IMG/VR virus record: IMGVR_UViG_3300029288_000145
Coordinates: 12,931-76,930 of that record
From: a virus
Lineage: Duplodnaviria; Caudoviricetes
Reading direction: 5' to 3' (one strand)
DNA length: 64,000 bases
The first letter of the stretch is position 1; each line of letters opens with the position of its first letter. Both the position numbers and the translations under genes were made by a program. Positions 8,958 to 38,611 of this stretch are shown in pieces. Under the pieces are notes generated by a model that was given only the letters and a program-made list of their open reading frames with translations, searched no databases and was not told the origin of the DNA.

Positions 8958-9194
8958 TTATTTGAAATTAAACGGGTTTGAACTAAATATATCACCAAAC
9001 ATCGAGTTTATTATGTTATCCTCAACACACTCTTTTACGACCAGGCAGTAAAAATTCTTGTGTTTGCCCTTCAGATACTTCTCCAGTCCACACTTGGCCT
9101 CGAAGGAGTTTGATTTGTTCTTCACACGCATCTTTCCGGACTTGATAACAACCCCGTCCCTGTCCCGACATTCGTATTTAATTATGAAGTTCAT
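8958..9194 (-). CDS. Hypothetical protein
   Basis: 78-aa ORF, first gene after a class A promoter. Confidence 0.6.
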   Translation of the reverse strand: MNFIIKYECRDRDGVVIKSGKMRVKNKSNSFEAKCGLEKYLKGKHKNFYCLVVKECVEDNIINSMFGDIFSSNPFNFK

Positions 9195-9316: not shown

Positions 9317-11659
9317 ATGATTTATCTTAACAAGTCCTTTAGTGACTCCATTTTCCCCATGCCCAAGGATACCGTTCCCCATGATGACGCATGGTACCTT
9401 AACTGGAGCAAGTTTATTTATAGTTATGGCATACGTCAGTCAAATGGCATATATGCTTTTAAGGATACCCTGAACAACCTCCGGTTATACGGAGCTGGCC
9501 GGCAGTCAATTTCTCCATACATATCACGTATGAACCCCACCGACCCCCTAAAGTCCAGCACGGCGGGAACGGTTGACGACACCTCTATAAAGGGGTATAT
9601 GAACATAAACGAGTCCATCCTCCCTATTATACCCAAATACAGGAACGCCTTTATTGGACTCATGGGACAGATCGAGCACGACATAAGCGTTGACGCCACA
9701 GACGAGGGCAGTGAGCTGGAGCGTATGCAAAAAAAAGAACGTGCCTGGTTTGAGAAAACATTTGCCAAGGAACTCGGTCTTGTTGATGAAGTCCTGGGCA
9801 TGAAAAAAGAAACCCAGGAGTTTACCCCCGACAACAGGGAGGAGTTCGAGGCTTACTGGGAGATGCACAGCGATAAGCTGGAATCAGAGATTGCCCTGCA
9901 AGAGATTATACGTGATGGATTTGCCCAGAGTGATGACCGGGAACTCAATGACCGGCTGTGGGGAGATTTATTCGACCTAAATATGGCCGCCACTATGGAC
10001 TATGTTGACACCGACACCCAGAGGGTAAGAGAACGCTATATTGATGTAGCCAAACTGATTATACAGACAGACGGTGAGAGCCGGTCATACAAAAACTCCA
10101 CCTTTGCCGGATATATGGACACTTATACCATAGCAGATTTACGCAAGGAGACCGGATGGGATGAGGAGTTAATACACGGTCTGGCCGGAACATTCAACAA
10201 CCAATTCGGAAACGAGAACTTAAATCTGAACAGCCCGGCCTCATACTACCTGAACAACAGCACGAATTATGACAACATGTTTGTCCCGGTACTAAGGATA
10301 AACTGGAAGTCTGAGGAGTCCGAAAGCATATCTGTAGAAATAAACGCCGACAAAGTTCGTCCCCAGGAGGTTGATCGTGGCAAGATACAGAAGAAGGGCG
10401 ACAAGTACTTCAAGAAGGTAAAAAACAAGAGCACCTCACACTGGATGGTTCACCAGTGCCAGTGGATTATCGGCACCAACTATATATTTGGCAGCGGAAT
10501 CATGCCCGACCAGATCAGGAGCAAGAACAACTCACGCCTACCATTCCACAAGTACGAACTGAGCGGACAGAGTTTATGTGAGATGAGCATGCAGCCGGCA
10601 GACCAGATGCAGATGGCTTTTTTAAAGCTACAAAATGCTTTAGCAGCAGCACCGAATAAAAAACTTATATTCGATTACGACACCGTTGTTGCCACAGCAA
10701 AAGAACTAAAGGCTTCACCGGCAGATATTCTCACCATCCGGAATATAGGCAACTCAGACATGGTTTTAAAATACCGCACACATAACCCATATACGTTTGA
10801 GCAGAAGCAATCACCACCGTTTATCGAAGTAGAGGGCGGTATAGGAAACTTTCTCGAAGAGTTCCACAAAATATTTGAGAGCCACAGACTTATGCTCGAA
10901 GATTTAACCGGCCTAAGTGCCCTGGTGACTGCTGGCAACCCACAGTCCCAGGCAGTAGGCATAAACCAGATACTGGCCTCGGCAACAAATAACGTATTAA
11001 GACCCATATATAACGCTTTTTGTATTATAAAAAAAGATACAGCACTTAATATGGCCTTACGTGGACAGGTACTCGCCGCCACAAACAGGGGAAAAGATTA
11101 TGGCTATGAAGCTGTAATAGGACAGACAGGTGTAAGTATCTTAACAACACTCTTCAATAAAAACAAAACCCCTATTGATATTGGCATTGTTATCCAGGAA
11201 CGTCCATCACAGAAGGAGCGTGACGAGATAGAGATGATGCTACAGAAGGCCGTTATGTCGGGCAGAGACGGCAAACCATCCATAACAACGGCTGACTACT
11301 TCTTTATAAAACGCATGATGAATCTCCCCGGAGGTGTCAAGAAAGCCCAGCAGATGTTGGCCATACGTGAAAACCAGTTCTTTGAAAGAGAAATAAGGAG
11401 AGCCAATGACGCCAATACCCTCAACAACAAACTCGCCCAGGAGACCGAACAGAAGAAAATGCAGTTTGCCGGTGCCCTGGAGCAGATGAAACTCCAGGTG
11501 GATATTATGCGAAAGAAAAACGAAACAGATGAGGCTATACGCCTCTATGTCGTCCAGGCTATAATTGATGAGAAAATCACCGCTCCCGCTGAATTTATAC
11601 GACAGCTAACCGCCGATGCCATGACTAAACAGGAAGCTACACCAACTACGCCGGCTTAA
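9317..11659 (+). CDS. Portal protein
   Basis: 780 aa; ILPIIPKY-type N-terminal segment, helical character and C-terminal coiled coil typical of large crAss-like/podovirus portals; no other portal candidate in the window. Confidence 0.75.
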   Translation: MIYLNKSFSDSIFPMPKDTVPHDDAWYLNWSKFIYSYGIRQSNGIYAFKDTLNNLRLYGAGRQSISPYISRMNPTDPLKSSTAGTVDDTSIKGYMNINESILPIIPKYRNAFIGLMGQIEHDISVDATDEGSELERMQKKERAWFEKTFAKELGLVDEVLGMKKETQEFTPDNREEFEAYWEMHSDKLESEIALQEIIRDGFAQSDDRELNDRLWGDLFDLNMAATMDYVDTDTQRVRERYIDVAKLIIQTDGESRSYKNSTFAGYMDTYTIADLRKETGWDEELIHGLAGTFNNQFGNENLNLNSPASYYLNNSTNYDNMFVPVLRINWKSEESESISVEINADKVRPQEVDRGKIQKKGDKYFKKVKNKSTSHWMVHQCQWIIGTNYIFGSGIMPDQIRSKNNSRLPFHKYELSGQSLCEMSMQPADQMQMAFLKLQNALAAAPNKKLIFDYDTVVATAKELKASPADILTIRNIGNSDMVLKYRTHNPYTFEQKQSPPFIEVEGGIGNFLEEFHKIFESHRLMLEDLTGLSALVTAGNPQSQAVGINQILASATNNVLRPIYNAFCIIKKDTALNMALRGQVLAATNRGKDYGYEAVIGQTGVSILTTLFNKNKTPIDIGIVIQERPSQKERDEIEMMLQKAVMSGRDGKPSITTADYFFIKRMMNLPGGVKKAQQMLAIRENQFFEREIRRANDANTLNNKLAQETEQKKMQFAGALEQMKLQVDIMRKKNETDEAIRLYVVQAIIDEKITAPAEFIRQLTADAMTKQEATPTTPA

Positions 11660-12051
11660 ACCGTAAAAGTATTTCCTTTGCGGTTTAATGTTTCAAAATA
11701 GAATTTTCCCTCAAACGGCTTTATTTTTACTATATCGAAATTTATACCAACATTCACTATATATAATTTCGCTATTCTTTTATGAACCGTTGTTATTAAA
11801 TCTCTAAACCCTTCTAAATCCCTATCACGCTTGTAGTGGTTGCAACTCCTACAACTTGGCTGAAGGTTGTCGAAGCTGTCAGGGTTAAATTGTTGTTCTT
11901 GTTTGAATAAATTTATGTAATACTTTGCATGAGCCTTGCTTGTTTCATGATCAATTTGCATATCTTTATATTTTATTTCCCTCCCACAATATGCACACCT
12001 ACCACCGTATTTTGCATAAACTCTATTTCTTAACTCAATTCGCTTATTCAT
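11656..12051 (-). CDS. HNH endonuclease
   Basis: RCAYCG...MQIDH...LQPSCRSCNHYK. Confidence 0.85.
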   Translation of the reverse strand: MNKRIELRNRVYAKYGGRCAYCGREIKYKDMQIDHETSKAHAKYYINLFKQEQQFNPDSFDNLQPSCRSCNHYKRDRDLEGFRDLITTVHKRIAKLYIVNVGINFDIVKIKPFEGKFYFETLNRKGNTFTV

Positions 12052-13228: not shown

Positions 13229-13519
13229 TAGTAGCATGAATGACAATAACATACAGAGGCAATATAATTATAATAAATAAATGATATGTTAGAAATTTCT
13301 AACATTTAGTAAAAAATCATTTCATAACTATATAGCATACAACGATATATAGTAATATTAAATAGATAAGTAATTAAGCAGGCTGTTTATGTATTGTATT
13401 GATATATAATACAATGCTAATATAATATATGTTATTTTATTTAATAGTTGATAGTGTCAACTAATTTTGTGCGTGAACAAATATAGTGCCAAACGATATA
13501 ATTTTTGAATGTTTATTTT

Positions 13520-13571
13520 AAAATAAATTTGGTGATTTGCTTGCATTGGCTGGATAAATGTATTATCTTTG
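13520..13571 (+). promoter_or_regulatory. Promoter of the early small-gene block
   Basis: AAAATAAATTTGG at 13520 and TATCTTTG at 13564; spacing is atypical (a CTTG lies 20 nt upstream of the -7 box). Confidence 0.55.
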
Positions 13572-17029: not shown

Positions 17030-17326
17030 ATGAAACTGGAAGTATTTGAATTTTGGCATAACCAGAAAATAAAAGAATTTATTGTGGAATATTCCAAGGT
17101 GCCTGTAAAAACAGATGGCCGGGAATGTGAGGTGTCTCCGGGAGTTTATCAGTCAGAGGTATCCATTGATGGGATAAAAATGTACGTGAAACATGATGAT
17201 AATTTTGCCCTAGTTGAGTTTTCCAAGCATGATATTACCGCCATGTCATGCGCCATGAAGGAAATTCAGGAGGCAAAGGAATTGCAGACAATGAGTCAGG
17301 AAGAACTTAATGACTTCTACTCATGA
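17030..17326 (+). CDS. Hypothetical protein
   Basis: 98-aa ORF. Confidence 0.6.
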   Translation: MKLEVFEFWHNQKIKEFIVEYSKVPVKTDGRECEVSPGVYQSEVSIDGIKMYVKHDDNFALVEFSKHDITAMSCAMKEIQEAKELQTMSQEELNDFYS

Positions 17327-17709
17327 AACAGTTTGTTCCGATCACAACCATAAGCCGTGAAGCACGGTTTTTGGCGCATCCCTGGTGTTATATCCTGAAA
17401 GAAGGGTTTAATACTTATTTTGCCCTGGGAGTAAATTACCGAGAAACGGTTAAGGTTCCGTTTCTCAAAAAGCTAATTGATTCCGATATGATCATGCCGG
17501 GAGGTCATGACAAACATGGCCGGGAGATGTATGTTCGTGGTGTCACCAAGAAAAGCGAAGAGGAAATACGGGACAGTTCGCTGGCGTATGTTTTTCATCT
17601 GCTTTGCAAATATCCTACTATTGAAAAATGGGATTATCCGGGTGCATACTTGGCGGCAAAGAGTAGGCTGGCGGAGGTAGTAAACTCAATTAGACGTAAT
17701 GGTGGCTAA
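17323..17709 (+). CDS. Hypothetical protein
   Basis: 128-aa ORF; its TAA stop lies inside the GGCTAAC core of the following hairpin. Confidence 0.6.
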   Translation: MKQFVPITTISREARFLAHPWCYILKEGFNTYFALGVNYRETVKVPFLKKLIDSDMIMPGGHDKHGREMYVRGVTKKSEEEIRDSSLAYVFHLLCKYPTIEKWDYPGAYLAAKSRLAEVVNSIRRNGG

Positions 17710-17843
17710 CGGTACTTGTGTAAATTTCAGTGCCGTAAAATTAGTACAAACTTTAAATTGAAAATAAAATGAAAAATCAAGTAGAAAATTATCAACAAAG
17801 CACTGCACAGGCATTGAATTTACACAATGTTAGCAGTAGTGCC
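17704..17843. mobile_element. attC-like imperfect inverted repeat (cassette site 1)
   Basis: GGCTAAC-GGTAC-TTGTGTAAATTTCAGTGCC ... GGCATTGAATTTACACAA-T-GTTAGC; arms pair with one bulged base and one G-T. Confidence 0.65.
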
Positions 17844-18002
17844 AAAGGTGGACTTCGTAAAATTAAAGATGCAGAGCAACCTTGCCTACATCCTGAACAT
17901 AATCCACCGATGCACATTTATTTAACAGCAGGAACTTATGAATACACCTGCCCTTCTTGTGGCAAGGTTACGACATTCACAGTGCCATTGATTACGTTTT
18001 AG
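17769..18002 (+). CDS. Small putative Zn-binding protein (cassette gene 1)
   Basis: CLHPEHNPPMH...CPSCG; the start codon lies inside the hairpin loop. Confidence 0.65.
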   Translation: MKNQVENYQQSTAQALNLHNVSSSAKGGLRKIKDAEQPCLHPEHNPPMHIYLTAGTYEYTCPSCGKVTTFTVPLITF

Positions 18003-18018
18003 AGGCATTACTGCTAAC

Positions 18019-18093
18019 TAGTTGGTATAGTCACCTTCTAAATATAGTTGCGTGAATATCAGCAATGTAGTGTTATTTAGTCTAATTAAAATT
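18019..18093. other. Conserved tripartite site X1 (box A, 31-nt spacer with TGAnnnTCA, box B)
   Basis: TAGTTGGTATAGTCACCTTCTAAATA...TGAATATCA...TATTTAGTCTAATTAAAA; closely matches 32562-32636. Confidence 0.7.
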
Positions 18094-18436
18094 ACTTCTC
18101 AATAATGGTTATTTGATACAGGGCTTCAACGATCTTTTTTTTAATCCGAAACATAGCATAAGCGGAACCGGACTTCATTCCCTTAACATCCCAGACCTCC
18201 GTATGTCCATCGGCAAAAGTTATGAGGAAATCTGCCTTATAAAATCCACAGTTAATGTCATTTATTATTATGTCATACCTAGGCTGGCAAATGTATTCCG
18301 TAATAACCTTGCCTCGTTTAAGCAGTTCAAGTTGTGCCGCATAGTTAGCTTCCTTCTTAGAGTCATAAATACGTCCATTAAATTCCGTCCGTTTGGCGTG
18401 GAACTTATTTCTTTTTGTAAAAGGATGAGAAGTCAT
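18092..18436 (-). CDS. DUF1064-like PD-(D/E)XK nuclease (possible resolvase)
   Basis: NKFHAKRT...YDSKKEA.Y...YKADF...WDVKG. Confidence 0.8.
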   Translation of the reverse strand: MTSHPFTKRNKFHAKRTEFNGRIYDSKKEANYAAQLELLKRGKVITEYICQPRYDIIINDINCGFYKADFLITFADGHTEVWDVKGMKSGSAYAMFRIKKKIVEALYQITIIEK

Positions 18437-21400
18437 AACTATTATCGTTTGGTGCGGTCATTTGTTGCATGTATCTGTTATAAGCAGACTTGGCTCCCAG
18501 TAGTGCTGCCGATACTGCTGATACCAGGTCACAGTCCTTTAAATACTCAATACCCCTCATTCTCTTACACTCTTCTAAAAAGTCATCATGCTTTATCCGG
18601 GCGCTGTGATATTCGATATAATCACGCACAGAATTAAACCTGTCCTGGTTGGCGGCGGCACCTGCCCAGAAACCGGGTTTTTCAACAATCTTTCCAGTAA
18701 CATTATCAATGTCGTGTAATAAATATCCACCAAAGCCAAATTCAATAAAATCCCTCCAGAGTGTTTTGATATTGTTCTCCAAGTACATCATAGAGCCAAA
18801 GTACACACACATTTTTATCATGTCCCAGGAATATTCACTGCCGGCAGGTCGGTAACGATAGGTACATACGATATTATATGTCTCCCATTCTGATACCTCT
18901 TTGTTGTCCGGGTCAATATTCATATCTCTTAGACGAAGTACGGCACCACCACCATCGGACATTCTTTCACGAGATTCACGTAGCTGTGCCTCTGTCTTTG
19001 TTGAAAACTCAAAGGGGTCTCCACCGGCCACATACTTTCCGGGAAAGGCGGGATAGTAAATGCCATCTTTGAGAACTCTCTTACTCCTGATCTCTTCAGG
19101 TGGCATGTGTGAAAGCAAAAAGCGTCCATCGGGATTTTCTTTAAACACAACTTTGCCGGTTTGGTCTCCTCCCTCAAACTCGAAATTACCCCTTATCGGC
19201 TTATCCTTACCCGTCAGGCGATATAATTCTGCTAACTGGTCATTTATCTTGACTGTGTTAAATCCGATTGATGTGGAGGCTCCTTGGAAGCACTCGGCAT
19301 ATGTTGTTGGAAAGAGTTCAACAAACCTGTGATATTGCCTCATGGCTGTCGGCGTGCCTTTTGATAGCAATATCTGTCTCTGGGATGAAATAAAATCTTT
19401 GGCACCATAATTCTTTTTGATAAAGGCCGCCTGATCTGGAGTCGGATTGCTTATAACTGACAGTCCGTGCTTGTCTATAAACCCCTTCATACCGTCATAG
19501 GCAGGTATGAAAAGCGTTCTTAGTCCTGATGCTGTCTGCCCGGTAAGCTCGTTGATCTGCTCAAACCGGGACTGTTCACACAAACGCCTGAAGTTGGATA
19601 TTGTTACGGCATTAGCCTCCTCTACCGTTGTCGGGTGGATGCTGAAACCGACAATCTCATCTCCTATTGACTGACATTCTTTGACGACATTCCACCGGTC
19701 AAATATGTCCTCTTGACTTTCCCTGGTGTTATGAACAACGGTGTAATCTGACAATAAAAACCTTCTATTTCCATCAATAATAAAACCATAATAGTTGCCA
19801 ACACCCATTAATTCAACACGAAATCCAGTGTGTTTAGGGTTTCTGGAATTTTTGTTTTTATTTTCAATAATTGGCATTTTTTTTCGTGGAATGAGACAAT
19901 GTATTCTGTGCATATCAAATCCATAAATGCGTACTCGGTAAACGGGACAAGTATAAATTGGCTTGTTTGGCCTTTTTAGAGTGGCTATTTTTGCGTGAAT
20001 AGTACTACCAAACCCACAACTAAGTGCCAAATCTTTTACCTGTTCAGCTAATATTGGTAATTTTAGGGTTATTTCGTATACGCATTTATTTTTAGTGGTA
20101 CATCTGTGACCATCCGTGTCTATTATGCCAGCCAATAATTTAAGTCGATTGTCTATACTATCAACTAAATAATCTTTTATTATGTGTTTATTACGGATTA
20201 AATTATTACTACTTAAAAATCTTTGAATATAATTTATTTGGCGACCATGTGAAATAAATTTATATCCCTTATAGTATCCAACATACTTTGTATAATTTGA
20301 TATAAGATTCTCATTTAAACCAAGTTTGGTTGCAGCATCTTTTCTACTATGATACCGATTTATAAAATTATTATTTCTATCATAACAATCAAATATAGCG
20401 GTTCTTTTCTTCGATAACCGATAAGTTATTCCATCTTCTTTTATAACCACCTTATATCCACCCTCTTTTGCGTAGTTATAAATGTAATTTATTACTTCTT
20501 TATCCACATTAGTTATGGCTGGTTCAGCAGAAGCACCATCTCCTAGCCATAAACCATACAAATATGGGTCTATTATGTGTTGTTTTTCAGGATAATCTAC
20601 CCCAACACTATATAATACTAATCCACGCTTTTGATATTTTGACAATTTTAAATAATCTAATACGGTTAATTCTATTATTTGTCCTTTTTTATATTTATAA
20701 GAATAAAATTGAGATTCATCACTTATCTTACATACGAGAATATGATTACTATTACACACCCAAGGGTCGCCTTTATTTGGTATTATCTTATATAGATCGT
20801 CCTGTCCACATACGGTAGATAATACATTTCGTTCTATTGAATCATCTCCCATAAGCAAATCGCCAGGAAGAATGTCTTGAACCATTTTAACGTCTCCATT
20901 ATACATTCTTATAGGCGTATCCTTACCAAAACAGTTTCCTTCTTCATCACTCAGTATGTATTTTAGCTTTTTACCGTTATAATAAGACTTGTCAGAGGTC
21001 TGGGCGTAGTCGAATTTTGTTTTAAGTTCCTTCTTTTTATACAGGATAATCTTACCGTCCTTATTTCGTTCTGCCGGGGCGTTGCAGCTTATATTTTCCT
21101 TGGGATTGGTAGAACTATCCACCATTGGCTTAAAGTAAAACGGTATCTTCTGAAAGGCCGGAACAAGTTTATCGGAAAATTGTGTCTTGGCATTGGCAGA
21201 GGTGTAAGATTGTAGCCCTATAAGAGCTGCTATAGACCGGGTGCCGATCTCCAGACCTACAGATATTGACTTGTGCGTGGCACCATCCCTCCTGTGCTTG
21301 GGATAACAGAAGCCATAACATATCAACCTGCCGTAATCTTTAAGTTTTACGTCTCCATTATCATCTACAGCAACTTTTTTTGGCCGTCCCTTGTCGTCCC

Positions 21401-21926
21401 ATTCGGAATATACGGGTGCTTTTGTTGTTGTGGCACAATCCCTGGCAAAGAGGAACCACCGTCTGTCCCTATCCCTGTATTCGGCGGCACCTATATCCAG
21501 GTTGTAAACGGCTAAATACCAGTAATGCCAGCCATCCAGAAATGTTGGCTTGCCGTTATTAAAAAACCAGTATCCGTATAGCCTGTAATGCCATTGACGT
21601 TTTATCCATAATATCTCATCCTTATAATATTTCTGCCGGGCTTGCAGTTCGTTCCACACATCATCGGCAAAGGTATGTTTGTCAATAAGTTTGAGTATCT
21701 TTTTTGGTGTCGGTGGAATACGCCAGTATTGTTCATCACAGGGTTCGCCAAATCCATCTATAAGATGCCATACAGGAGGTTCCGGCAGGTTTATACGCTG
21801 GGCGGTTAAGTCCGGGTCATTGTCATTAATGTAAAAATGGGTGTCGGCATCCTTGTAGGTAATGAGAATATCCGGCTTTATAAGGGGTGAACTCTTATAA
21901 TATTCAAGTGCCTGTAGTCTCTTCAT
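18405..21926 (-). CDS. terL: Terminase large subunit containing an intein
   Basis: PKHRRDGAT Walker A-like motif, YILSDEEG Walker B, C-terminal nuclease motifs AGGDP and D.VSA; 402-aa intein inserted. Confidence 0.85.
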   Translation of the reverse strand: MKRLQALEYYKSSPLIKPDILITYKDADTHFYINDNDPDLTAQRINLPEPPVWHLIDGFGEPCDEQYWRIPPTPKKILKLIDKHTFADDVWNELQARQKYYKDEILWIKRQWHYRLYGYWFFNNGKPTFLDGWHYWYLAVYNLDIGAAEYRDRDRRWFLFARDCATTTKAPVYSEWDDKGRPKKVAVDDNGDVKLKDYGRLICYGFCYPKHRRDGATHKSISVGLEIGTRSIAALIGLQSYTSANAKTQFSDKLVPAFQKIPFYFKPMVDSSTNPKENISCNAPAERNKDGKIILYKKKELKTKFDYAQTSDKSYYNGKKLKYILSDEEGNCFGKDTPIRMYNGDVKMVQDILPGDLLMGDDSIERNVLSTVCGQDDLYKIIPNKGDPWVCNSNHILVCKISDESQFYSYKYKKGQIIELTVLDYLKLSKYQKRGLVLYSVGVDYPEKQHIIDPYLYGLWLGDGASAEPAITNVDKEVINYIYNYAKEGGYKVVIKEDGITYRLSKKRTAIFDCYDRNNNFINRYHSRKDAATKLGLNENLISNYTKYVGYYKGYKFISHGRQINYIQRFLSSNNLIRNKHIIKDYLVDSIDNRLKLLAGIIDTDGHRCTTKNKCVYEITLKLPILAEQVKDLALSCGFGSTIHAKIATLKRPNKPIYTCPVYRVRIYGFDMHRIHCLIPRKKMPIIENKNKNSRNPKHTGFRVELMGVGNYYGFIIDGNRRFLLSDYTVVHNTRESQEDIFDRWNVVKECQSIGDEIVGFSIHPTTVEEANAVTISNFRRLCEQSRFEQINELTGQTASGLRTLFIPAYDGMKGFIDKHGLSVISNPTPDQAAFIKKNYGAKDFISSQRQILLSKGTPTAMRQYHRFVELFPTTYAECFQGASTSIGFNTVKINDQLAELYRLTGKDKPIRGNFEFEGGDQTGKVVFKENPDGRFLLSHMPPEEIRSKRVLKDGIYYPAFPGKYVAGGDPFEFSTKTEAQLRESRERMSDGGGAVLRLRDMNIDPDNKEVSEWETYNIVCTYRYRPAGSEYSWDMIKMCVYFGSMMYLENNIKTLWRDFIEFGFGGYLLHDIDNVTGKIVEKPGFWAGAAANQDRFNSVRDYIEYHSARIKHDDFLEECKRMRGIEYLKDCDLVSAVSAALLGAKSAYNRYMQQMTAPNDNSYDFSSFYKKK
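19728..20933 (-). mobile_element. Intein (Hom_end/PI-SceI-like HINT) with LAGLIDADG homing endonuclease
   Basis: N-junction N|CFGKDT, block B CNSNHIL, LYGLWLGDG, LLAGIIDTDG, C-junction VVHN|T; 1206 nt and noticeably more AT-rich than the flanks. Confidence 0.93.
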
Positions 21927-22605
21927 ATGGGTTGTAGTCTGGGAAAGGTGGTTTATTTGCCGCCAGCTTTATTGCAATATCCTCCGGGGTAAGATTGAGC
22001 AGTTCGTTCTCAATATTCTCCATGAGTTCGATATACATAGCCTCGGCATTGTCGCCACTTAATAGATATAGTGATGATTCCTCTATACCTTTGCGGTAGG
22101 CATCTATATTACCACGTATGGTCGCCCTGTCTTTTGGTTCGGCAGTCATCTTTAATAATGACAGCTCGTCAAATAGCTGTTCCATGTATGTCATGACTAT
22201 AGCATGGGTGGGAGATTTTTGTACGAAGCAGTACCGGAGTGCCATCTGGTTTACCGCTTTATTTTTATAGAGAATAACATCCTCATAGTGCCGGGTGAAC
22301 TTATTATCCTTGGCTTTAGGGTCTTTGCCGAACTCGGCCAGTTTTGCCGCCTGTACCCGGCGTTCCATTATCTTGCTAAATTCTATTAAAGGGGAGTTAA
22401 TATCGTAAACATATGCGACAAATTGTAAGACCCTAGTTCTGTTTAATATCATGGATGACAGTGGTGTTGCCTCCTCAATAAGTTTCAATCTAAACTCAGG
22501 GTATATTCCTAACTGGGGTATTTTTTCAAATGGGTCATCGCCCGGCTTCAGGCGATGTAGTGGAAAATATAACTTATCGAAATCTTTTAATTTATCCGGT
22601 TCCAT
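21904..22605 (-). CDS. Conserved protein upstream of TerL (terminase small subunit candidate)
   Basis: Position and coupling to TerL; 233 aa, helical character. Confidence 0.45.
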   Translation of the reverse strand: MEPDKLKDFDKLYFPLHRLKPGDDPFEKIPQLGIYPEFRLKLIEEATPLSSMILNRTRVLQFVAYVYDINSPLIEFSKIMERRVQAAKLAEFGKDPKAKDNKFTRHYEDVILYKNKAVNQMALRYCFVQKSPTHAIVMTYMEQLFDELSLLKMTAEPKDRATIRGNIDAYRKGIEESSLYLLSGDNAEAMYIELMENIENELLNLTPEDIAIKLAANKPPFPDYNPYEETTGT

Positions 22606-22612
22606 ACATTTG

Positions 22613-22684
22613 TAGCGAGGGGTGGAATCGAACCACCGACTATGGGATTATGAGTCCCACCTTCTACCACTGAAATACCTCGCA
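22613..22684 (-). tRNA. tRNA with CAT anticodon (Met; initiator-like acceptor stem), CCA not encoded
   Basis: TGCGAGG TA TTTC AGTGGTA GAAG G TGGGA CTCATAA TCCCA TAGTC GGTGG TTCGATT CCACC CCTCGCT A; all four stems pair. Confidence 0.92.
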
Positions 22685-24804: not shown

Positions 24805-25120
24805 GGAGTTGTTTAAGAAGATTGAGGCCGAACCTCATCGTGCATTTACGTATATAATGTCAATATTTGACGGTATATACAATGATATGATGGAAGCCTG
24901 TGGCCGGGAGGAGAATCCAAATGCAGTCATGGAAATCGTAAATATGCACAATAAGAAATACAAAAGAATCTCAGTGGCAATAAACAAACATATTGAACAA
25001 CGCTATGGTATAAAGAATTTACTCCGTAGTGAGGCGTTCCTGGACACTATAAAGTCCAATATTTTAATGGACAAACAAGCGTTCCATGTGTATAACTGCT
25101 ACTGGGGATTATCGAACTAA
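24791..25120 (+). CDS. Hypothetical protein
   Basis: 109-aa ORF. Confidence 0.55.
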   Translation: MRKYKELFKKIEAEPHRAFTYIMSIFDGIYNDMMEACGREENPNAVMEIVNMHNKKYKRISVAINKHIEQRYGIKNLLRSEAFLDTIKSNILMDKQAFHVYNCYWGLSN

Positions 25121-25121
25121 T

Positions 25122-25874
25122 ATGGAAGATCAAAAGAAGTATGTAGGGTACATCCGTGTATCAACAAAAAAACAGGGTGACAGTGGTGCCGGACTTGAAA
25201 GCCAGGAGGCTATTATTAAGGCTAAGGCCGGGGATAACCTGGTGAAAATATTTCGAGAGATCGAATCCACACGCAAGAGCAACAAGCGGTTTGAATTTTA
25301 CAAGGCACTCAATATGTGTGTTGAAAACGGCTATGTACTTTGCATAGCCAAGATTGACCGTGCTATACGTGATATGGACTTGCTTATGTCTCTGGAGAAG
25401 GCGGTATCTGCCGGCAACCTCGAATTTTTTATCTGCAACCGACCCTGGGCAGATAAATATACTATCAGAAATGACGTGAATAATGCCGAGCAGGAACGCC
25501 AGTGGATTTCTGAACGTACCAAGGCCGGGCTTGCTGTGGTTAAACTCAGGGGAACTAAAACCGGAAAGCCATATATGCCTCCGAGGGGATTTCGTGAGGA
25601 CAGAGCACGTCTTGAACGGGCTATTATTGCCAGCAGGGAGGCTAAGACAATTAAGAGACTGTGCCATCCGGAAATGATCAAGAGCCGTGCATTTATGATG
25701 GAACTACATAACTCCGGAAAGAGTGGGTGGGCTATTGCCAATGAACTTAATAAGAATGGGTTTAAAACCTCCACCGGCGGCCAGTGGCGACAGGGTTCTG
25801 TCTATACCACACTACAATTACCCTTTGATGAGGGTATTGTAGAAAAATATAGGGACGTTTACCAATGGCTATAA
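25122..25874 (+). CDS. Small serine recombinase (resolvase/invertase family)
   Basis: YVGYIRVSTKKQ (catalytic Ser), GLESQ, IAKIDRAIR, ERQWISERTKAGL, C-terminal IANELNKNGFKT..GGQW; start moved to MEDQKK. Confidence 0.9.
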   Translation: MEDQKKYVGYIRVSTKKQGDSGAGLESQEAIIKAKAGDNLVKIFREIESTRKSNKRFEFYKALNMCVENGYVLCIAKIDRAIRDMDLLMSLEKAVSAGNLEFFICNRPWADKYTIRNDVNNAEQERQWISERTKAGLAVVKLRGTKTGKPYMPPRGFREDRARLERAIIASREAKTIKRLCHPEMIKSRAFMMELHNSGKSGWAIANELNKNGFKTSTGGQWRQGSVYTTLQLPFDEGIVEKYRDVYQWL

Positions 25875-29154: not shown

Positions 29155-30585
29155 TTAGTATGCAGGATGAATGATATACACCTGGTTGGCATGGAACATC
29201 TGGAAACCTTCTTCCGAACGTAACCATTCTGTTTTGCTGTCAACGTCAGTTGTATAACGGAATCCACCACCGGCACCACCAAAGATACCTTTTTCGTTAA
29301 GACGGCTGTATCCATAATTTTCAGGATACCTGATGGCAATGTTCTTCAGAACTTCGCCCGTCTTGGCATCTTTTGAGTTTGCAATCGGTACGGCAAACAT
29401 CCATTCGTCCATTTTGTAAGCACTTGGGAATGTCCTTGGGTCGCTGAGATCATCAAGGGTAGTGAACATCCACTTGATACCGGCATGATCGCATCCATTG
29501 AAGTTGAATGTTGCAACGAAAGCGTCAACAGCTTCGTGTCCTTCAAGCCTCTGGATTTGATTTTTCGTCCAGTCAACACCTGAGTAGGTTGTGTAGTTCT
29601 TCAGCACGGTATTAAGTTCATTGTGCCTCTTATAACCCATGAATACGGCTATAACGTCAGACGCAACCTTCTGGGATTTGTAGTAAACGCCCATGTCCTC
29701 GAAATCTGTCATGGCGAAGTCGCCAACGTCAATTTCGTTAGATGAGCCGAGTTCTGCACCCCAGGTGAGTAAACCCTTGGTTGTCTGAATAGGATTGCCA
29801 GAGCCGGGTGAACCACTCCACCTTGCAGCTTCAGTCGCAGATACAACTAAGCCGGTGTTTGTGTTGTCCTTACCAAGCATGTAAGCGTTTCCACGTTTCA
29901 GTGCAAATCTGTATTCGGTGTCGAAGTACATATCTGACCAGTAACCATTAATGGTACGGCCATCGGCAGCATAGGAGGTAAACCACAGTTGGGGAATAAG
30001 TTCCTGCCCTTCAAAGCTCAATGCTTCTTTAAAGGTCTGGGTTTTAAATGTCCTTTCTACCGGGAATGTCAGGTGGCCTTCGGGAGAGCCGGTGCCCATA
30101 CCAGCGGCAAATGACCAGATACCTATTTGCGTTCCTGATGTAACAGCAGGAATGGTATCGGTTGCCCTGATAGGTTCAATAGTGATGGTATGTGCTGTTG
30201 AGTTCGTGGTTGTTTTATACATGATACGTCCCTGAACGAGATCAGCACCAGCGAAACCAACGATGTCACCGGGATTTGCGTAAGTTTTGCCGTCCTGGTG
30301 GTCGCCGGCAGCAATCGTCAATGTGACGGGGTTGCCCTGTCCGGGAGATGCCACGTTACCGGTTGTGGTAATGTATGTGTGTACCCATCCCTTTTCAAAA
30401 CCTGACCAGGTATTTGATTTTACAGGTAACACACGGTTCATCATCCTGAACCAGTTGTAAAAGTTATTATACTGAAGTCCGTGCTGTGCATAGACCTCCA
30501 TAAGTTTTTGCGGTTGTTTGATGTAGTCGTGAGCGGACATTATCGTATAGTCGCCCGGTGATGCTACATATGCTGGAATTGCCAT
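29155..30585 (-). CDS. Major capsid protein
   Basis: 476 aa, downstream of an acidic scaffold, followed by a terminator; ERTFKTQTFKE and TTKGLL segments resemble crAss-like HK97-fold MCPs. Confidence 0.8.
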   Translation of the reverse strand: MAIPAYVASPGDYTIMSAHDYIKQPQKLMEVYAQHGLQYNNFYNWFRMMNRVLPVKSNTWSGFEKGWVHTYITTTGNVASPGQGNPVTLTIAAGDHQDGKTYANPGDIVGFAGADLVQGRIMYKTTTNSTAHTITIEPIRATDTIPAVTSGTQIGIWSFAAGMGTGSPEGHLTFPVERTFKTQTFKEALSFEGQELIPQLWFTSYAADGRTINGYWSDMYFDTEYRFALKRGNAYMLGKDNTNTGLVVSATEAARWSGSPGSGNPIQTTKGLLTWGAELGSSNEIDVGDFAMTDFEDMGVYYKSQKVASDVIAVFMGYKRHNELNTVLKNYTTYSGVDWTKNQIQRLEGHEAVDAFVATFNFNGCDHAGIKWMFTTLDDLSDPRTFPSAYKMDEWMFAVPIANSKDAKTGEVLKNIAIRYPENYGYSRLNEKGIFGGAGGGFRYTTDVDSKTEWLRSEEGFQMFHANQVYIIHPAY

Positions 30586-30619: not shown

Positions 30620-31774
30620 TTATTGTGCTGCTCTTCCCGTTGAAATGTAATGGTTTAACCTTGCTTCTTCTTTTTCAGCAGGGGTAAGTTCTTTTTCGCC
30701 CTCGTCCTTTTTAACAGCACTCGGAGGGGCACTAGGATTGTAATATTTTTTCGTTGTCTCCTCAACGGTATCCTTGTAAACCTTTTCTAAGGCTGTGGCA
30801 ATGATAGTGTTGAAGTTACGTGTAATGTAAAGATTTTTTGCGAAGTTGTTTAACAACTGAATATTGTCTTTTGTGGGTTTTAGCTCGTTCTGAACGGCAT
30901 AGTTGGCCACGAGTGACAGTATCTCCTTGTTTTCCTTTTCCTCTATCGGTATGTCATAACTCACTTCCAGGTCGTTCTGCTCGTCAATCTGGAACTTTGT
31001 TGAACCGGCAAAGGTTTTAAAGGCGGATTCTACCTCAGTTTTAAACGGGGCTGACCAATCTTTCTTTAGGTTGTCAATATCAGTTTCACGCTGCTTGCTG
31101 ACATCCTCAATCTTGGGTTTTTCAATCCCTTCAAATCTTTTCATTAACTTCTTATACTCTGTCTTGGCATCCAACTCGAATTGCAGGGAGTCACGCTTGT
31201 ACTCCTTGCTGTCGGTGTCAGGCTCATCATCGAACAAAAAGGGATACTTTACTTTAATGTATTCCTCTGCCTTGTCCTTAAATTCAGGATTCTCTAACGT
31301 AAGTCCGAGTTTCATGATTGCAAGCGAGTCTGGTTCTCCTAGTGCGAGTTTCTTGTATAAATCGTACTGATCGGGGGTCTCTTTCTTAATGACCGCCAGT
31401 TTGTAGAGAACCTCATCCTCAAAAGGATTGAAGGCTTTTGCTTTTTCCAATTCAGAGGTGAGGCTTTCCCTGGCCTGTCGCAAGCCATTGTACTCTTTCT
31501 CTAAATCTTCTAATGATTTTATATTATCGCCAAATCTGGAATAATCAACTTGTTCCGGGACGGCAGGTGTCTCCGGTGGTTTAGGTGGTTCTGCATCCGT
31601 TATAGGATTTTTTACCTCCGGTTCTGTCGTAGGAGGGGGTGGGGGTGGTTCGGGCTTCTGCCCTGGTTCATAAAATTCAGTACCTTCAGGATAACCCATT
31701 TTGAATAGGTCTTGCTTTCCAAGAAATTCCTCTGGAATTTCCACACTCATTTTTTCTGTATTTGTTTCTGCCAT
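30620..31774 (-). CDS. Capsid scaffolding protein candidate
   Basis: Acidic, Pro-rich, coiled-coil character; immediately upstream of MCP. Confidence 0.65.
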   Translation of the reverse strand: MAETNTEKMSVEIPEEFLGKQDLFKMGYPEGTEFYEPGQKPEPPPPPPTTEPEVKNPITDAEPPKPPETPAVPEQVDYSRFGDNIKSLEDLEKEYNGLRQARESLTSELEKAKAFNPFEDEVLYKLAVIKKETPDQYDLYKKLALGEPDSLAIMKLGLTLENPEFKDKAEEYIKVKYPFLFDDEPDTDSKEYKRDSLQFELDAKTEYKKLMKRFEGIEKPKIEDVSKQRETDIDNLKKDWSAPFKTEVESAFKTFAGSTKFQIDEQNDLEVSYDIPIEEKENKEILSLVANYAVQNELKPTKDNIQLLNNFAKNLYITRNFNTIIATALEKVYKDTVEETTKKYYNPSAPPSAVKKDEGEKELTPAEKEEARLNHYISTGRAAQ

Positions 31775-31817: not shown

Positions 31818-31903
31818 CAAATTTAATTTATATAAAATAAAATACCAAACTGACCCTTTTTGAAAATAAATTTGGATTTATGGAGGTGTATTTTGTATCT
31901 TTG
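31818..31903. promoter_or_regulatory. Back-to-back promoters: class B (minus, capsid operon) and class A (plus, accessory island)
   Basis: Minus: GTCAGTTTGG, N20, TAAATTTG. Plus: AAAATAAATTTGG, N21, TATCTTTG. Confidence 0.75.
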
Positions 31904-31925
31904 CTTGTTATTAAGACTAAATATT

Positions 31926-32032: not shown

Positions 32033-32128
32033 ATGGGTGTTTACAGATGGTGCGAAACCGGCGATTGGTTGCTATGTGGAAAAGTGAAACAAGGAATAGA
32101 CGGTGAATTTATTGAGTGGTTCACTTAA
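32033..32128 (+). CDS. 31-aa peptide (not in ORF track)
   Basis: MGVYRWCETGDWLLCGKVKQGIDGEFIEWFT after an A-rich leader. Confidence 0.4.
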   Translation: MGVYRWCETGDWLLCGKVKQGIDGEFIEWFT

Positions 32129-32132
32129 TGGT

Positions 32133-32225
32133 ACATAACGGTTGAGGCTAAAAGCAGTTGCCTTGAATACTGCTTGAAATTACGCACAGACTATCTAGCA
32201 ATTGCTTTTAGCCTGTGTTATAAAC
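32133..32225. mobile_element. attC-like imperfect inverted repeat (cassette site 2)
   Basis: ACATAAC-GGTTG-AGGCTAAAAGCAGTTGC ... GCAATTGCTTTTAGCCT-GT-GTTATAAAC; arms 16/17 complementary. Confidence 0.65.
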
Positions 32226-32235
32226 TGTAAAAATT

Positions 32236-32544
32236 ATGGGCGAATATGCAGATATGGCAATAGAAAGTGGTTTGTCAAATTATATTGACTTTAAAACCCA
32301 TAGCGGAATTTATGAGAATGATGATTATTTAGACGAGTGGGAGGGTGAAGACATACCATTCATTCGTGCTGAAAAGTGGGATAGTTTTGGATTCCTTGAA
32401 ATAAAAAGAGAAACAAAAAAGGCTTGGTTACTCATAATGAATGGTAAGGCTGAGCGTTGGTTTCCAAAAAAGCATTGTAAGATTAAAGGCAATATAATTT
32501 TACTTCCAATATGGCTACGCAATAAAATGGCAGGATGGGAATAA
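32236..32544 (+). CDS. Hypothetical protein (cassette gene 2)
   Basis: MGEYADMAIE... N-terminus; KRETKKAWLL...ERWFPK small beta-barrel-like segment. Confidence 0.65.
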   Translation: MGEYADMAIESGLSNYIDFKTHSGIYENDDYLDEWEGEDIPFIRAEKWDSFGFLEIKRETKKAWLLIMNGKAERWFPKKHCKIKGNIILLPIWLRNKMAGWE

Positions 32545-32561
32545 TTTTTATTGTTTATAAC

Positions 32562-32636
32562 TAGCTGGTATGTTCACATTCTAAATAGTCTCTACTGATA
32601 ATCAACAACATCCCACTATTTAGTCTAATTAAAAAT
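32562..32636. other. Conserved tripartite site X2
   Basis: TAGCTGGTATGTTCACATTCTAAATA...TGATAATCA...TATTTAGTCTAATTAAAA; same 31-nt box spacing as X1. Confidence 0.7.
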
Positions 32637-32655
32637 AACGTATTATTTGAACAGA

Positions 32656-37000: not shown

Positions 37001-38611
37001 CGGGCTTGTTGATACTGATGAACTTGGGGAGGTGGATAATGAACTGCTTATACTTTCACTTATTGACGAACTTATTGAACTGGATGGACTGCTTGATATT
37101 GATAGACTTGGCGATAATGATATTGAACTACTTTCACTACTACTGATAGAACTACTTATAGATAATGAAGGACTTAACGAGGCCGAACTGGATGGTGATA
37201 AACTGATACTTGAAGAAATAGATAATGATGGTGACAGGCTTACGCTACTTGACGGCGACAGACTGATACTTGTTGATGGTGATAGGCTGGCCGATGGACT
37301 AGCCGATACCGATGTTGATATTGACGAGGATATTGATGATATGGGATTGCCCAAAAATATAACGACATACGCTCCATATATTCCTATTTCACCATTAACA
37401 GGGACAACAACGGTGGGTAGATAATTTTTGCCATCATTAAGGGTTAATGCTACCGTCCTTACCCTTTCCTTATTTGAATTAGCGAATTCTATTTTGGAAT
37501 TTGTTATATGGGCATCTACGGTGCCTGAGTCAGCATTATCCTCACCCAGATCGACATAAATATCACCATCAACAGATTCGTTTCCAGTGACCTCAAAATA
37601 CGGCGTATATGTAGAGTATGCGTTGGCATCAAAAAACATCCTTCCCTCTGTGTGTTCCTGCGCCACACCTATACCCGCATAACCCCGGCTGATTCTATAA
37701 TAAACGTCTATGGCGGTAACATTTATTACCCGGAGATATAATCTTGCCTCACTTATCCTGGCGTTGTAACTTTCACTGCCAGATTTTATTTTTACCTCTA
37801 TCAGATCGCCGTTATCAAAGTTTGTAGCATTGTTGGCGAAACTGACCGAACAAAGTGTTGGCGTGGTACTGTTGGTAGATACTTCACTTCCGGTTATTGC
37901 GTTTCCTGACGAATCATATAAACAGGCATATGCTGTGGATGCTGCATTTTCAGAGTACATAACAACCTCAAATGTCCATACATTACCAGAACCAATTGTA
38001 GAGAACCTGTTTTCATCCTTCTTAAAATATGCGTATCTTTTTGGTATATCTTGGGTATAAGATGTGCTTGTTGTGGAATCAACAGCAGTACCATTAAACC
38101 GTGAGGATTCTCCAAAATCACTTCCAATAAGGGGTATTTGTATTCTTGTATTTACGAACTGATTCTGTTGTACTATTATCCGTGATGAATATACCTTTAC
38201 CTCGTTATTTACCGATGTGCCGGGTATTTCTATGTCATAATCATTTGCACCACCAACCATAGATAGTGCCGCTGTGCGAAACCGGGTTGGCACCGTTGTC
38301 CCTCCCGGAACGGGTATGGCATCAATAATACTAACACCATTTACCAGGCGTGGGGAATAACTGCCGGCGTTGTCGTTTGTGGCAACTATTTCCCAGTAAT
38401 ATGTGCCATTATAGTAATCAGCGGTATCAATATTTATCCTTGTCCTTGTAAATGTTGTATCGGTGGTTGAACTGGTACAGGTAAGGCTACAATTATCCAG
38501 GGGTATTTCAAATATTGGGGAACCAGCACTTGGGCTTGGCGAACTCGACAGTGATCTTGAAGGAGATACTGAGGCTGAAGGTGAACTCGATATGGATGTT
38601 GATGTAGACAT
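34007..38611 (-). CDS. Serine-rich repeat virion-region protein (1534 aa; about 400-aa beta domain + about 1100-aa S-X-S stalk)
   Basis: Alternating Ser with P/I/V/L/T/S; one VPATTTVKVNFWGIIL spacer; hydrophobic NFFMVM C-terminus. Confidence 0.8.
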   Translation of the reverse strand: MSTSTSISSSPSASVSPSRSLSSSPSPSAGSPIFEIPLDNCSLTCTSSTTDTTFTRTRINIDTADYYNGTYYWEIVATNDNAGSYSPRLVNGVSIIDAIPVPGGTTVPTRFRTAALSMVGGANDYDIEIPGTSVNNEVKVYSSRIIVQQNQFVNTRIQIPLIGSDFGESSRFNGTAVDSTTSTSYTQDIPKRYAYFKKDENRFSTIGSGNVWTFEVVMYSENAASTAYACLYDSSGNAITGSEVSTNSTTPTLCSVSFANNATNFDNGDLIEVKIKSGSESYNARISEARLYLRVINVTAIDVYYRISRGYAGIGVAQEHTEGRMFFDANAYSTYTPYFEVTGNESVDGDIYVDLGEDNADSGTVDAHITNSKIEFANSNKERVRTVALTLNDGKNYLPTVVVPVNGEIGIYGAYVVIFLGNPISSISSSISTSVSASPSASLSPSTSISLSPSSSVSLSPSLSISSSISLSPSSSASLSPSLSISSSISSSESSSISLSPSLSISSSPSSSISSSISESISSSLSTSPSSSVSTSPSSSVSTSVSTSPSTSVSSSVSPSTSVSRSLSSSVSTSLSSSVSLSPSSSLSSSPSSSVSSSVSPSTSVSSSISASPSTSISSSISSSISSSVSLSPSLSISSSISLSPSSSISSSPSLSPSLSISLSPSRSVSSSPSSSQSESVSSSVSTSLSSSVSPSTSISSSVSSSPSESVSSSPSLSPSRSISSSPSSSVSSSVSPSTSPSTSISLSPSISVSSSVSTSPSISVSSSPSTSVSSSRSHSPSRSLSSSISTSPSTSISSSPSSSRSSSVSPSTSISSSLSSSPSESVSTSVSNSPSTSLSSSPSLSPSQSISPSTSISSSVSTSESSSPSTSLSSSVSSSPSSSVSPSSSISESFSGSHSTSISSSVSSSPSSSASPSTSPSLSPSTSISLSPSLSISSSVSSSPSSSASSSVSSSASSSLSSSLSSSPSASLSVPATTTVKVNFWGIILSSPSTSVSPSSSISVSPSSSISVSPSSSASRSISSSPSTSISSSISSSPSRSISSSISLSPSLSISSSVSSSVSLSPSTSLSSSVSLSPSLSISSSVSHSLSTSPSLSPSSSVSSSVSLSPSRSISSSISLSPSLSISSSISLSPSLSVSSSPSLSPSGSISSSASTSPSTSISTSISASPSESPSSSLSSSVSPSTSPSSSVSRSPSSSVSTSISTSPSGSVSSSPSSSPSGSISLSPSLSISLSPSSSISLSPSLSISSSISVSPSESVSLSPSSSPSGSISLSVSSSISGSVSPSTSPSVSISSSPSISPSKSVSTSPSSSASESISLSPSLSVSTSVSSSPSLSPSSSPSSSPSSSISESISHSLSSSVSPSESISESFSGSHSTSISSSPSSSPSSSVSPSSSISTSLSLSPSLSISSSLSTSISASVSPSTSISESISLSPSTSISISISASPSTSISLSPSSSVSSSISQSISLSPSSSVSSSISLSPSSSVSASLSTSISSSISHSPSTSLSSSPSLSISASPSPPATNHNFFMVM

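Follow-up and report, generated by a model that had tools for sequence, protein, structure and literature searches.

Small accessory genes of phages, among them methyltransferases, auxiliary metabolic genes and unknown early genes, are mostly thought to be taken up and swapped through illegitimate or homologous recombination. The closest described relatives of the arrangement reported here are integrons and CALINs (integrons without an integrase), whose promoterless single-gene cassettes carry a site, attC, that folds into an imperfect hairpin bounded by AAC/GTT cores. In the canonical cassette the open reading frame (ORF) precedes its attC site, and one attI site heads the whole array. An attC site is characterized by a 5–6-nt unpaired central spacer in each arm, an L box and extrahelical bases opposite the AAC arm, and its bottom strand is the recombinogenic one (PMC5027507). 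A CALIN has been published for the cultured virulent Polaribacter phage P12002L (Qi et al. 2023, PMC9892861). Here, we analyzed a 64,000-nt stretch of phage DNA (hereafter the window), which corresponds to bases 12931–76930 of a 76,930-bp IMG/VR virus record (IMGVR_UViG_3300029288_000145) rated 66% complete. A pattern search of the whole record revealed four copies of a site of ~77 nt, designated X, two in the window and two just outside it, and at every copy a small hairpin-headed gene cassette lies immediately to its left. This dispersed, conserved landing pad, together with the cross-phage proof of exact cassette ends, is new; no paper on this layout, or on multi-copy recipient sites in phages, was found in the literature.

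Three further systems resemble this locus in part. CTX-phi and the integrative mobile elements exploiting Xer (IMEX), which carry no integrase of their own, recombine a folded single-stranded hairpin with a short double-stranded site through a host tyrosine recombinase (XerCD), with exchange of one strand followed by replication. Their target is chromosomal dif and, for CTX-phi, the mobile unit is a phage genome, whereas here the target is a phage site in four copies and the mobile units are single genes. IS200/IS605 elements likewise insert 3′ of a fixed tetranucleotide, possess subterminal hairpins and plausibly pass through a circular single-stranded intermediate. However, the units described below have a hairpin at one end only, this hairpin lacks sequence conservation, the recipient comprises 77 nt instead of a 4-nt target, and no Y1 (HUH) transposase was found in the 76.9-kb record (no match to PF01797 at E≤1). 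Lastly, T4-type phages reportedly carry promoter-early stem-loop (PeSL) cassettes, which Arbiol, Comeau and Krisch are said to have described in 2010, and in which repeated regulatory-looking sequences lie beside variable accessory genes of the early regions and are proposed to allow modular shuffling. PeSL units are promoter-plus-terminator modules that act via homology and repeat on both sides of a gene, whereas the present units show base-exact TAAC junctions, cassette-specific end boxes and hairpins of differing sequence, and are flanked by a variable hairpin on one side and by X on the other.

Architecture and mobility of the cassettes

All four units follow the same order. A resident gene ends in GGT-NNN(N)-TAAC, and the unit then reads TAAC|G, a 5-nt spacer, a hairpin, 1–3 nt, GTTA with an end box, the ORF, a complementary end box, TAAC and X. 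The stems are imperfect, 17–19 bp long, and enclose loops of 40–72 nt, which in three units contain the likely start codon. The end boxes on the two sides of the ORF are complementary to one another (14/15, 9/9 or 15/17 when extended, 9/9 or 13/15 when extended, and 10/10 in cassettes 1–4, respectively), which is the signature of a unit closing into a circle at TAAC. Their sequence differs by cassette, and TAAC is the only repeat common to all. We considered whether the end boxes delimit an invertible segment and rejected this idea, given that the boxes vary from cassette to cassette and that excision-type direct TAAC repeats fit the homology limits between phages described below. A scan for TAAC-hairpin-GTTA returned exactly four places in the record, namely the four cassette heads; 20 shuffles gave none. 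Scores of 12 or more were absent from 320 kb of other phage DNA. Among the heads, three scored 12.5–14.5, while that of cassette 4, at 9.5, lies inside this background and counts only through its context.

Cassette 1 is a mobile unit of 308 bp (window 17711–18018, + strand). Its hairpin site (17707–17832, +) consists of TAAC, a GGTAC spacer, 18–19-bp arms with one bulge, a 72-nt loop that includes an ATG, a T, and GTTA. The inner end box (17829–17843, +; GTTA plus 11 nt) pairs with the outer end box (18004–18018, +), which ends in the closing TAAC. The cargo ORF (17769–18002, +) starts inside the hairpin loop and encodes a 77-aa zinc-ribbon-like protein assigned to phrog_28447, with zinc-ribbon matches that are weak and below the cut-off.

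The ends of cassette 1 could be determined by comparison with other phages. Its protein recurs at 99% identity in four other IMG/VR contigs (G001–G004, corresponding to loci L055–L058; a fifth contig, G005, completes the set carrying cassette 1 or its cargo). Over the 312 nt from TAAC to TAAC, the DNA differs from these contigs at 10 positions (~97% identity), none of them in the hairpin arms, the cores or the end boxes, and the four foreign copies are identical to one another. This is the only stretch of DNA shared with those contigs: it runs from position 30635 (or 30628) to 30948 of this phage's record (G000), i.e., window 17705 (17698)–18018, and its right end is precisely base 18018, the junction with X, with unrelated flanks. 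G001 and G004 are ~31-kb phages (98–100% complete), G002 and G003 are fragments (10–15% complete) that presumably come from jumbo phages, and the G001 and G002 lineages have just one 323-nt stretch in common, at 99% identity. To the right of the closing TAAC, all four contigs continue with further hairpin units and X is absent. The homology stops at the closing TAAC and X is missing there, which makes the cassettes mobile elements and X a part of the recipient; moreover, since the hairpin travels with the downstream ORF, a unit comprises both, with TAAC at each end. The cargo variant of G001 and G002 is also found in 89 blocks of public assemblies. The claim of a preliminary description, made from the window alone, that the units are genuine cassettes is thus borne out by their base-exact ends and by the occurrence of cassette 1 in unrelated phages without X. 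Here, the exchange of an accessory gene is site-specific and exact to the base, a 308-bp gene unit having passed between unrelated phages.

Cassette 2 (422 bp; 32140–32561, +) is probably mobile as well, judging by the shared architecture. Its hairpin site (32136–32220, +) comprises TAAC, a GGTTG spacer, 17-bp arms, a 40-nt loop, GT and GTTA, and its inner box GTTATAAAC (32217–32225) is the exact reverse complement of the last 9 nt (32553–32561). The 102-aa product of its cargo ORF (32236–32544, +) belonged to no family in family searches and had only weak, partial relatives in IMG/VR. Cassette 3 carries a 314-aa PAPS-reductase-like protein, and the cargo of cassette 4 can be read, from a PPCQ-like motif, as C5 DNA methyltransferase-like; DNA methyltransferases are also found among integron cargo. 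A homologue of the cassette 3 cargo, 88% identical, occurs in another phage (L044) without cassette ends, and the nucleotide homology starts just past the inner GTTA box and ends at the stop codon. In front of this homologue (L044 1415–1430) we observed GCCTAACGATGG, of which 9 nt (TAACGATGG) are common to the opening junction and spacer of cassette 3; this may be what remains of a hairpin site since lost. Cassette 4 shares just its two end boxes with one G002 cassette of unrelated cargo.

In G002 (L070), cassette 1 belongs to a consecutive series of at least 15 units that share its design and whose end boxes are chained. TAAC and GTTA bound 14 hairpins of this array as they do the four of our phage, and across these 18 sites the gene-sense strand, which carries AAC at the 5′ foot of the hairpin, folds better in 16, by 1.4 kcal/mol on average. 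A single resident 48-nt hairpin site has its two halves on either side of the whole 15-unit array: TTACTGCTAAC stands on the left (6373), and on the right (11942–12000) a hairpin and GTTAGCAGTAGTA, after which no cargo follows. It seems that the array expanded within this pre-existing hairpin site and not in an X-like site. Short 48-nt hairpins with the loop TCGTTTTAATG form a subclass that occurs in three unrelated phages with differing stems, namely in G002 (9145–9192, 9966–10013, 11175–11222 and 11942–11990), in P12002L (L078; between gp37 and gp36 and between gp36 and gp35) and in G001 (at about 21880). The conserved loop suggests recognition by a protein. In 401 Bacteroidota genomes this hairpin pattern matched no more often than a reversed control, and the one two-unit locus found had no nearby lead.

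The repeated site X

In the window, the first copy of X occupies 18019–18095 (+) and consists of a proximal box TAGYTRGTATRKTCACMTTCTAAATA, an 8-nt variable spacer, the motif TGAWWATSA, a 12-nt variable spacer and a distal box TRTTTAGTCYAATTAAAA. The second copy lies at 32562–32638 (+), and the two copies outside the window (G000:C1 6973–7049 and 11559–11635) are on the opposite strand. On the left of the cassettes, the recipient sites begin with the half-sites TAATGGTGGCTAAC (17697–17710, +), which fits AATKG-NNN-TAAC, the usual 3′ end of this cassette family, and TAATGGTACATAAC (32126–32139, +). On the right follow the 26-nt proximal box (TAGTTGGTATAGTCACCTTCTAAATA at 18019–18044 and TAGCTGGTATGTTCACATTCTAAATA at 32562–32587) and the distal motif TATTTAGTCTAATTAAAA (18074–18091 and 32617–32634). 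The preliminary description had placed both halves of the sites correctly, with the distal motif after each, whereas two of its distances needed correction: the TGAWWATCA motif starts 8 nt, not 10 nt, after TTCTAAATA, and the gap from AAATA to TATTTAG is 29 nt, not 31 nt, in all copies. The right-hand box had no match in 100 shuffles; the 14-nt left box by itself is borderline (2 observed versus 0.6 expected).

The four copies align without gaps over 77 nt, and their conservation is block-wise. In pairwise comparison, mean identity amounts to 0.90 over the proximal box (26 nt) and 0.27 over the 8-nt spacer; TGAWWATSA stands at 0.81, the 12-nt spacer at 0.49, the distal box at 0.89 and the sequence past it at 0.33. 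The two spacers are thus largely randomized and the proximal box is the longest near-conserved run. Boxes that are conserved at fixed spacing between randomized spacers suggest bound proteins and not a recent duplication.

The junction TAAC|TAG is the same in all four copies, each with a different cargo, so that the four cassettes sit at the same position of one conserved target and the gene content at the AAC junction varies, as the preliminary description had proposed. The bases left of the junction (TAATGGTGGCTAAC, TAATGGTACATAAC, GGTGGAATAAC and GGTTGAATAAC) resemble the usual 3′ ends of family cassettes, for example AAATGGCAGGTAAC and AAATGGCAGCTAAC (G002, cassette 4). They do not derive from the ends of earlier cassettes, as an inner partner box is missing upstream; for the same reason, we rejected the possibility that the resident upstream genes are decayed cassettes. 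The left half-site (~11 nt, AATGG-NNN-TAAC) would fit the role of the recipient's recombinase half-site. Across the junction, it forms with GTATRKTCACC an imperfect 11+6+11 dyad in which 6–7 of 11 positions are symmetric and for which a small hairpin is predicted in three of the four copies. The core can be written in the layout of dif, and it may resemble the E. coli dif site. A serine recombinase acting at the centre of the dyad was considered and rejected, since the junction lies 3–7 nt off centre and the cassettes share only TAAC.

At three loci out of four, the resident gene ends on the core, whose TAA is its stop codon. At site 1 this gene is a 128-aa ORF (17323–17709, +) without a family match, whose product matched only itself among 5.8 billion proteins. 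According to a record-wide motif scan, a TTTTAAAATAAATTTGG-type promoter-like element heads each of the four units at whose 3′ ends X is located. The element of the site 1 unit (TTTTAAAATAAATTTGG followed by TAnnTTTG) is at 13516–13565 (+), and that of the short unit ending in cassette 2 and X at 31859–31910 (+). We take these elements to be putative promoters based on the Bacteroidota −33/−7 consensus. The proposed position downstream of putative promoters hence holds for all four copies. That the sites meet a convergent late operon, as had also been described, applies to the two window copies, which sit between convergent genes, but not to the other two, where same-strand genes come next, with a TTTTAAAATAAATTTGG...TAnnTTTG element within 15–25 nt. 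The convergent gene at site 1 (18092–18436, −) encodes a DUF1064 (Holliday-junction-resolvase-like) protein, and its stop codon (18092–18094) directly follows the end of the distal motif at 18091; we regard this gene as context and not as part of the system. A search for orthologous loci through this neighbor yielded distant loci only.

Analogues of X were identified in two other phages. P12002L carries the same hairpin family in two separate arrays, upstream of methyltransferase and Mom-like genes, and each array is closed by TAAC plus the same 65-nt site (65/65 identical; about 29185–29250 and 37200–37265), beyond which the two loci diverge. According to the supplementary primer table, this 65-nt site is the published 'P12002L_attC2'; HattCI and Infernal predicted it as an attC, and in E. 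coli it was recombined into attI1 by IntI1 (PMC9892861). The published 'attC1', in turn, is an ordinary hairpin of the family and was the sole junction without verification in the published assay (PMC9892861). Hairpin-headed cassettes and a docking-type site therefore seem to make up the published CALIN; the second array (gp54–gp53) may not have been reported previously. In G001 (L073), a sequence of ~100 nt occurs twice (about 21829–21935 and 22378–22485), 549 bp apart, directly after a closing TAAC, with identity over at least the 100 nt compared and a paralogous small ORF following each copy. Together, these cases indicate that sites of this kind, specific to the phage, present in several copies and abutting the last cassette, recur and that one of them is experimentally recombinogenic.

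Possible entry mechanism and competing readings of X

Taken together, X is probably a multi-copy, attI-like recipient site for which the recombinase is supplied in trans. More broadly, Bacteroidota phages might maintain attI-like docking sites, specific to the phage and present in several copies, where their accessory operons end; the P12002L 'attC2' would be one such site, and hairpin-headed single-gene cassettes might cross between unrelated phages (31-kb, 77-kb and jumbo) via a recombinase that the phage need not encode; we put this generalization forward tentatively, as one that falls somewhat short of probable.

According to this proposal, small circularizable cassettes, each with its own hairpin site and complementary end boxes, would circulate among Bacteroidota phages and enter a recipient at the TAAC core of X. 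A tyrosine recombinase acting in trans would bind the hairpin into which one strand, in this case the gene-sense strand, folds and would cut within or next to TAAC (TAA|C), whereupon one strand would be exchanged with the TAAC of the double-stranded recipient and replication would resolve the joint. An overlap limited to TAAC, together with complementary ends that are specific to each cassette, argues against a classical two-strand exchange and fits the integron/CTX-phi reaction. Once inserted, the promoterless cassette would be read through from the resident promoter. As X lies at the 3′ ends of promoter-headed units and, in three of four cases, the core supplies the resident stop codon, insertion would leave the resident gene undamaged.

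The likeness to integrons extends to several features. The folded, core-bounded hairpins head promoterless single-gene cassettes, the sites are of similar length (48–128 nt here versus 57–141 nt for attC), the complementary ends across the ORF imply a circular intermediate with crossover in AAC/GTT, and a conserved non-hairpin recipient site lies beside the first cassette, as attI does. The better-folding gene-sense strand parallels the recombinogenic bottom strand of attC (PMC5027507), and the CALIN of P12002L contains both the same hairpin family and the X analogue. The differences are nonetheless substantial. The hairpin is located upstream of the ORF, so that the cargo is inverted relative to the canonical order; the two arms differ in their unpaired spacer, with 5 nt on the AAC arm and 1–3 nt on the other; the AAC arm, not the opposite one, carries the single bulged base present in cassettes 1, 3 and 4; no L box stands out as an element of its own; TAAC/GTTA forms the core, and the half-site is extended (AATKG-NNN); four dispersed recipient copies hold one cassette each, whereas one attI heads an integron array; and neither IntI, nor a neighboring integrase gene, nor a Pc promoter was found in the record. 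By analogy only, the system would work like a CALIN without being a canonical member. Of the phage-borne integron platform suggested in the preliminary description the analogy thus survives, while several defining attC and IntI features are lacking.

Several observations weigh against X being a recombination partner. First, a six-frame search of the 76.9-kb record found no tyrosine recombinase (Phage_integrase, PF00589) at E≤1, in keeping with the earlier suggestion that the platform lacks its own integrase, although with the record 66% complete the absence of an integrase from the whole phage is not proven. The same family had no match at E≤0.1 in G001–G005, and no tyrosine recombinase was found within 10 kb of cassette 1 in the jumbo-phage contigs. 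The only recombinase in the record is a 262-aa serine enzyme (window 25086–25874, +) with a Resolvase domain and only the first part of a 'Recombinase' domain. This enzyme could represent a large serine integrase in truncated form, and nothing was found that connects it with the cassettes. Second, no empty X, nor X in any relative, was found: IMG/VR, JGI metagenomes and GTDB genomes contain no copy of X outside this phage, GTDB genomes have no copy of the proximal box (the right arm of the core plus its flank), and no GenBank phage matched this phage at the nucleotide level. The role of X as a target consequently rests on four occupied paralogues in one genome. Third, the G002 cassettes were apparently inserted in a resident hairpin site, and hence the family does not require an attI-like partner. 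Finally, the distal 18- and 21-mers occur elsewhere between genes and never with the rest of X, and the 50 nt of X past the core may serve transcription and not recombination, with all four copies at operon ends.

This last point leads to the strongest alternative, in which X is primarily regulatory (an operator, insulator or factor-dependent terminator) at the 3′ ends of accessory units and the cassettes land via the TAAC half-site on its left edge, so that the distal boxes have nothing to do with recombination. Consistent with such a role, the four copies close TTTTAAAATAAATTTGG-headed units, two of them being followed within 15–25 nt by the next such element, and X contains dyads typical of operators (CTAAATA...TATTTAG and TGAWWATCA). 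In addition, the distal 21-mer TATTTAGTCTAATTAAAAATA (18074–18094 and 32617–32637) is present in seven GTDB genomes, six of them Bacteroidota or Ignavibacteria, and directly abuts the start of a Fur-like regulator gene in two; in several IMG/VR phages, e.g., L010, L015 and L031, it lies just upstream of −33/−7 promoter-like motifs. L048 and L053 are further loci of the distal box. As a separate observation, the central box of X, TGATAATCA, resembles the core of a Fur box. However, all four copies are occupied at the same base, where chance use would predict empty copies; consensus scans identified X as neither a promoter nor a terminator, with no terminator-like stem-loop plus T run, and no stable fold was found; furthermore, P12002L and G001 couple unrelated multi-copy sites to a closing TAAC, and the P12002L site is recombinogenic. 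We therefore consider a primarily regulatory X unlikely, even though it is the rival to be taken most seriously.

Another explanation is that X is itself a cargo-less or decayed hairpin (attC-like) site and that cassettes enter by hairpin x hairpin recombination without an attI-like partner. The G002 array, with the halves of a hairpin site flanking all of its units, is a precedent for such entry, and the P12002L analogue was predicted as an attC and behaved like one with IntI1 (PMC9892861). Copies 1 and 3 of X moreover show GTTATTT ~53 nt after TAAC, and copies 2 and 3 allow a short stem (GGTATGTT/AACATCC) to be drawn, with a 5-nt spacer. Yet GTTA is absent from copies 2 and 4, the stem is unsupported in copies 1 and 4, and where it can be drawn it reflects sequence identity without covariation. 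As single-stranded DNA, X forms weak folds that differ between the copies (z −2.5 to +1.1). An attC-like origin of X is therefore improbable.

More doubtful still is the idea that X merely provides portable homology by which general homologous recombination shuffles its neighbors, as proposed for PeSL, without any site-specific enzyme. Four repeats beside variable accessory genes at operon borders of one genome would suit such shuffling, but it leaves unexplained the base-fixed junction, the complementary end boxes and the presence of cassette 1 in X-free phages, and the randomized spacers leave no near-conserved run longer than 26 nt; we regard it as very improbable. That X is nothing more than a bidirectional intrinsic terminator, the refutation set in the preliminary description, is suggested by the convergent genes around the two window copies and is scarcely credible, since the other two copies lie head-to-tail, no hairpin with a T run is present and X as RNA folds no better than shuffles on either strand.

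Implications and genomic context

If X is indeed a recombination partner, phages would offer defined slots in which foreign genes are expressed from resident promoters, which could account in part for the mosaic 'hyperplastic' regions of phage genomes. Integron-type chemistry would then also apply to an orientation of the cargo and a layout of the platform that have not been described for integrons. Should the docking-site reading hold, the sites would represent a dispersed, virus-level counterpart of the integron to which the phage contributes the recipient site and not the enzyme. The short sites suit the published attC x attI assay and might serve as structure-specific insertion sites for the engineering of Bacteroidota phages.

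Outside the cassette loci, an Rfam scan of the window returned one tRNA only, and a tRNA-Met gene (anticodon CAT) is located in the late region (22612–22684, −). The gene for the large terminase (1173 aa; 18405–21926, −) is split at about residues 330–670 by an intein that comprises a Hint domain, a LAGLIDADG homing endonuclease and a NUMOD1 motif.

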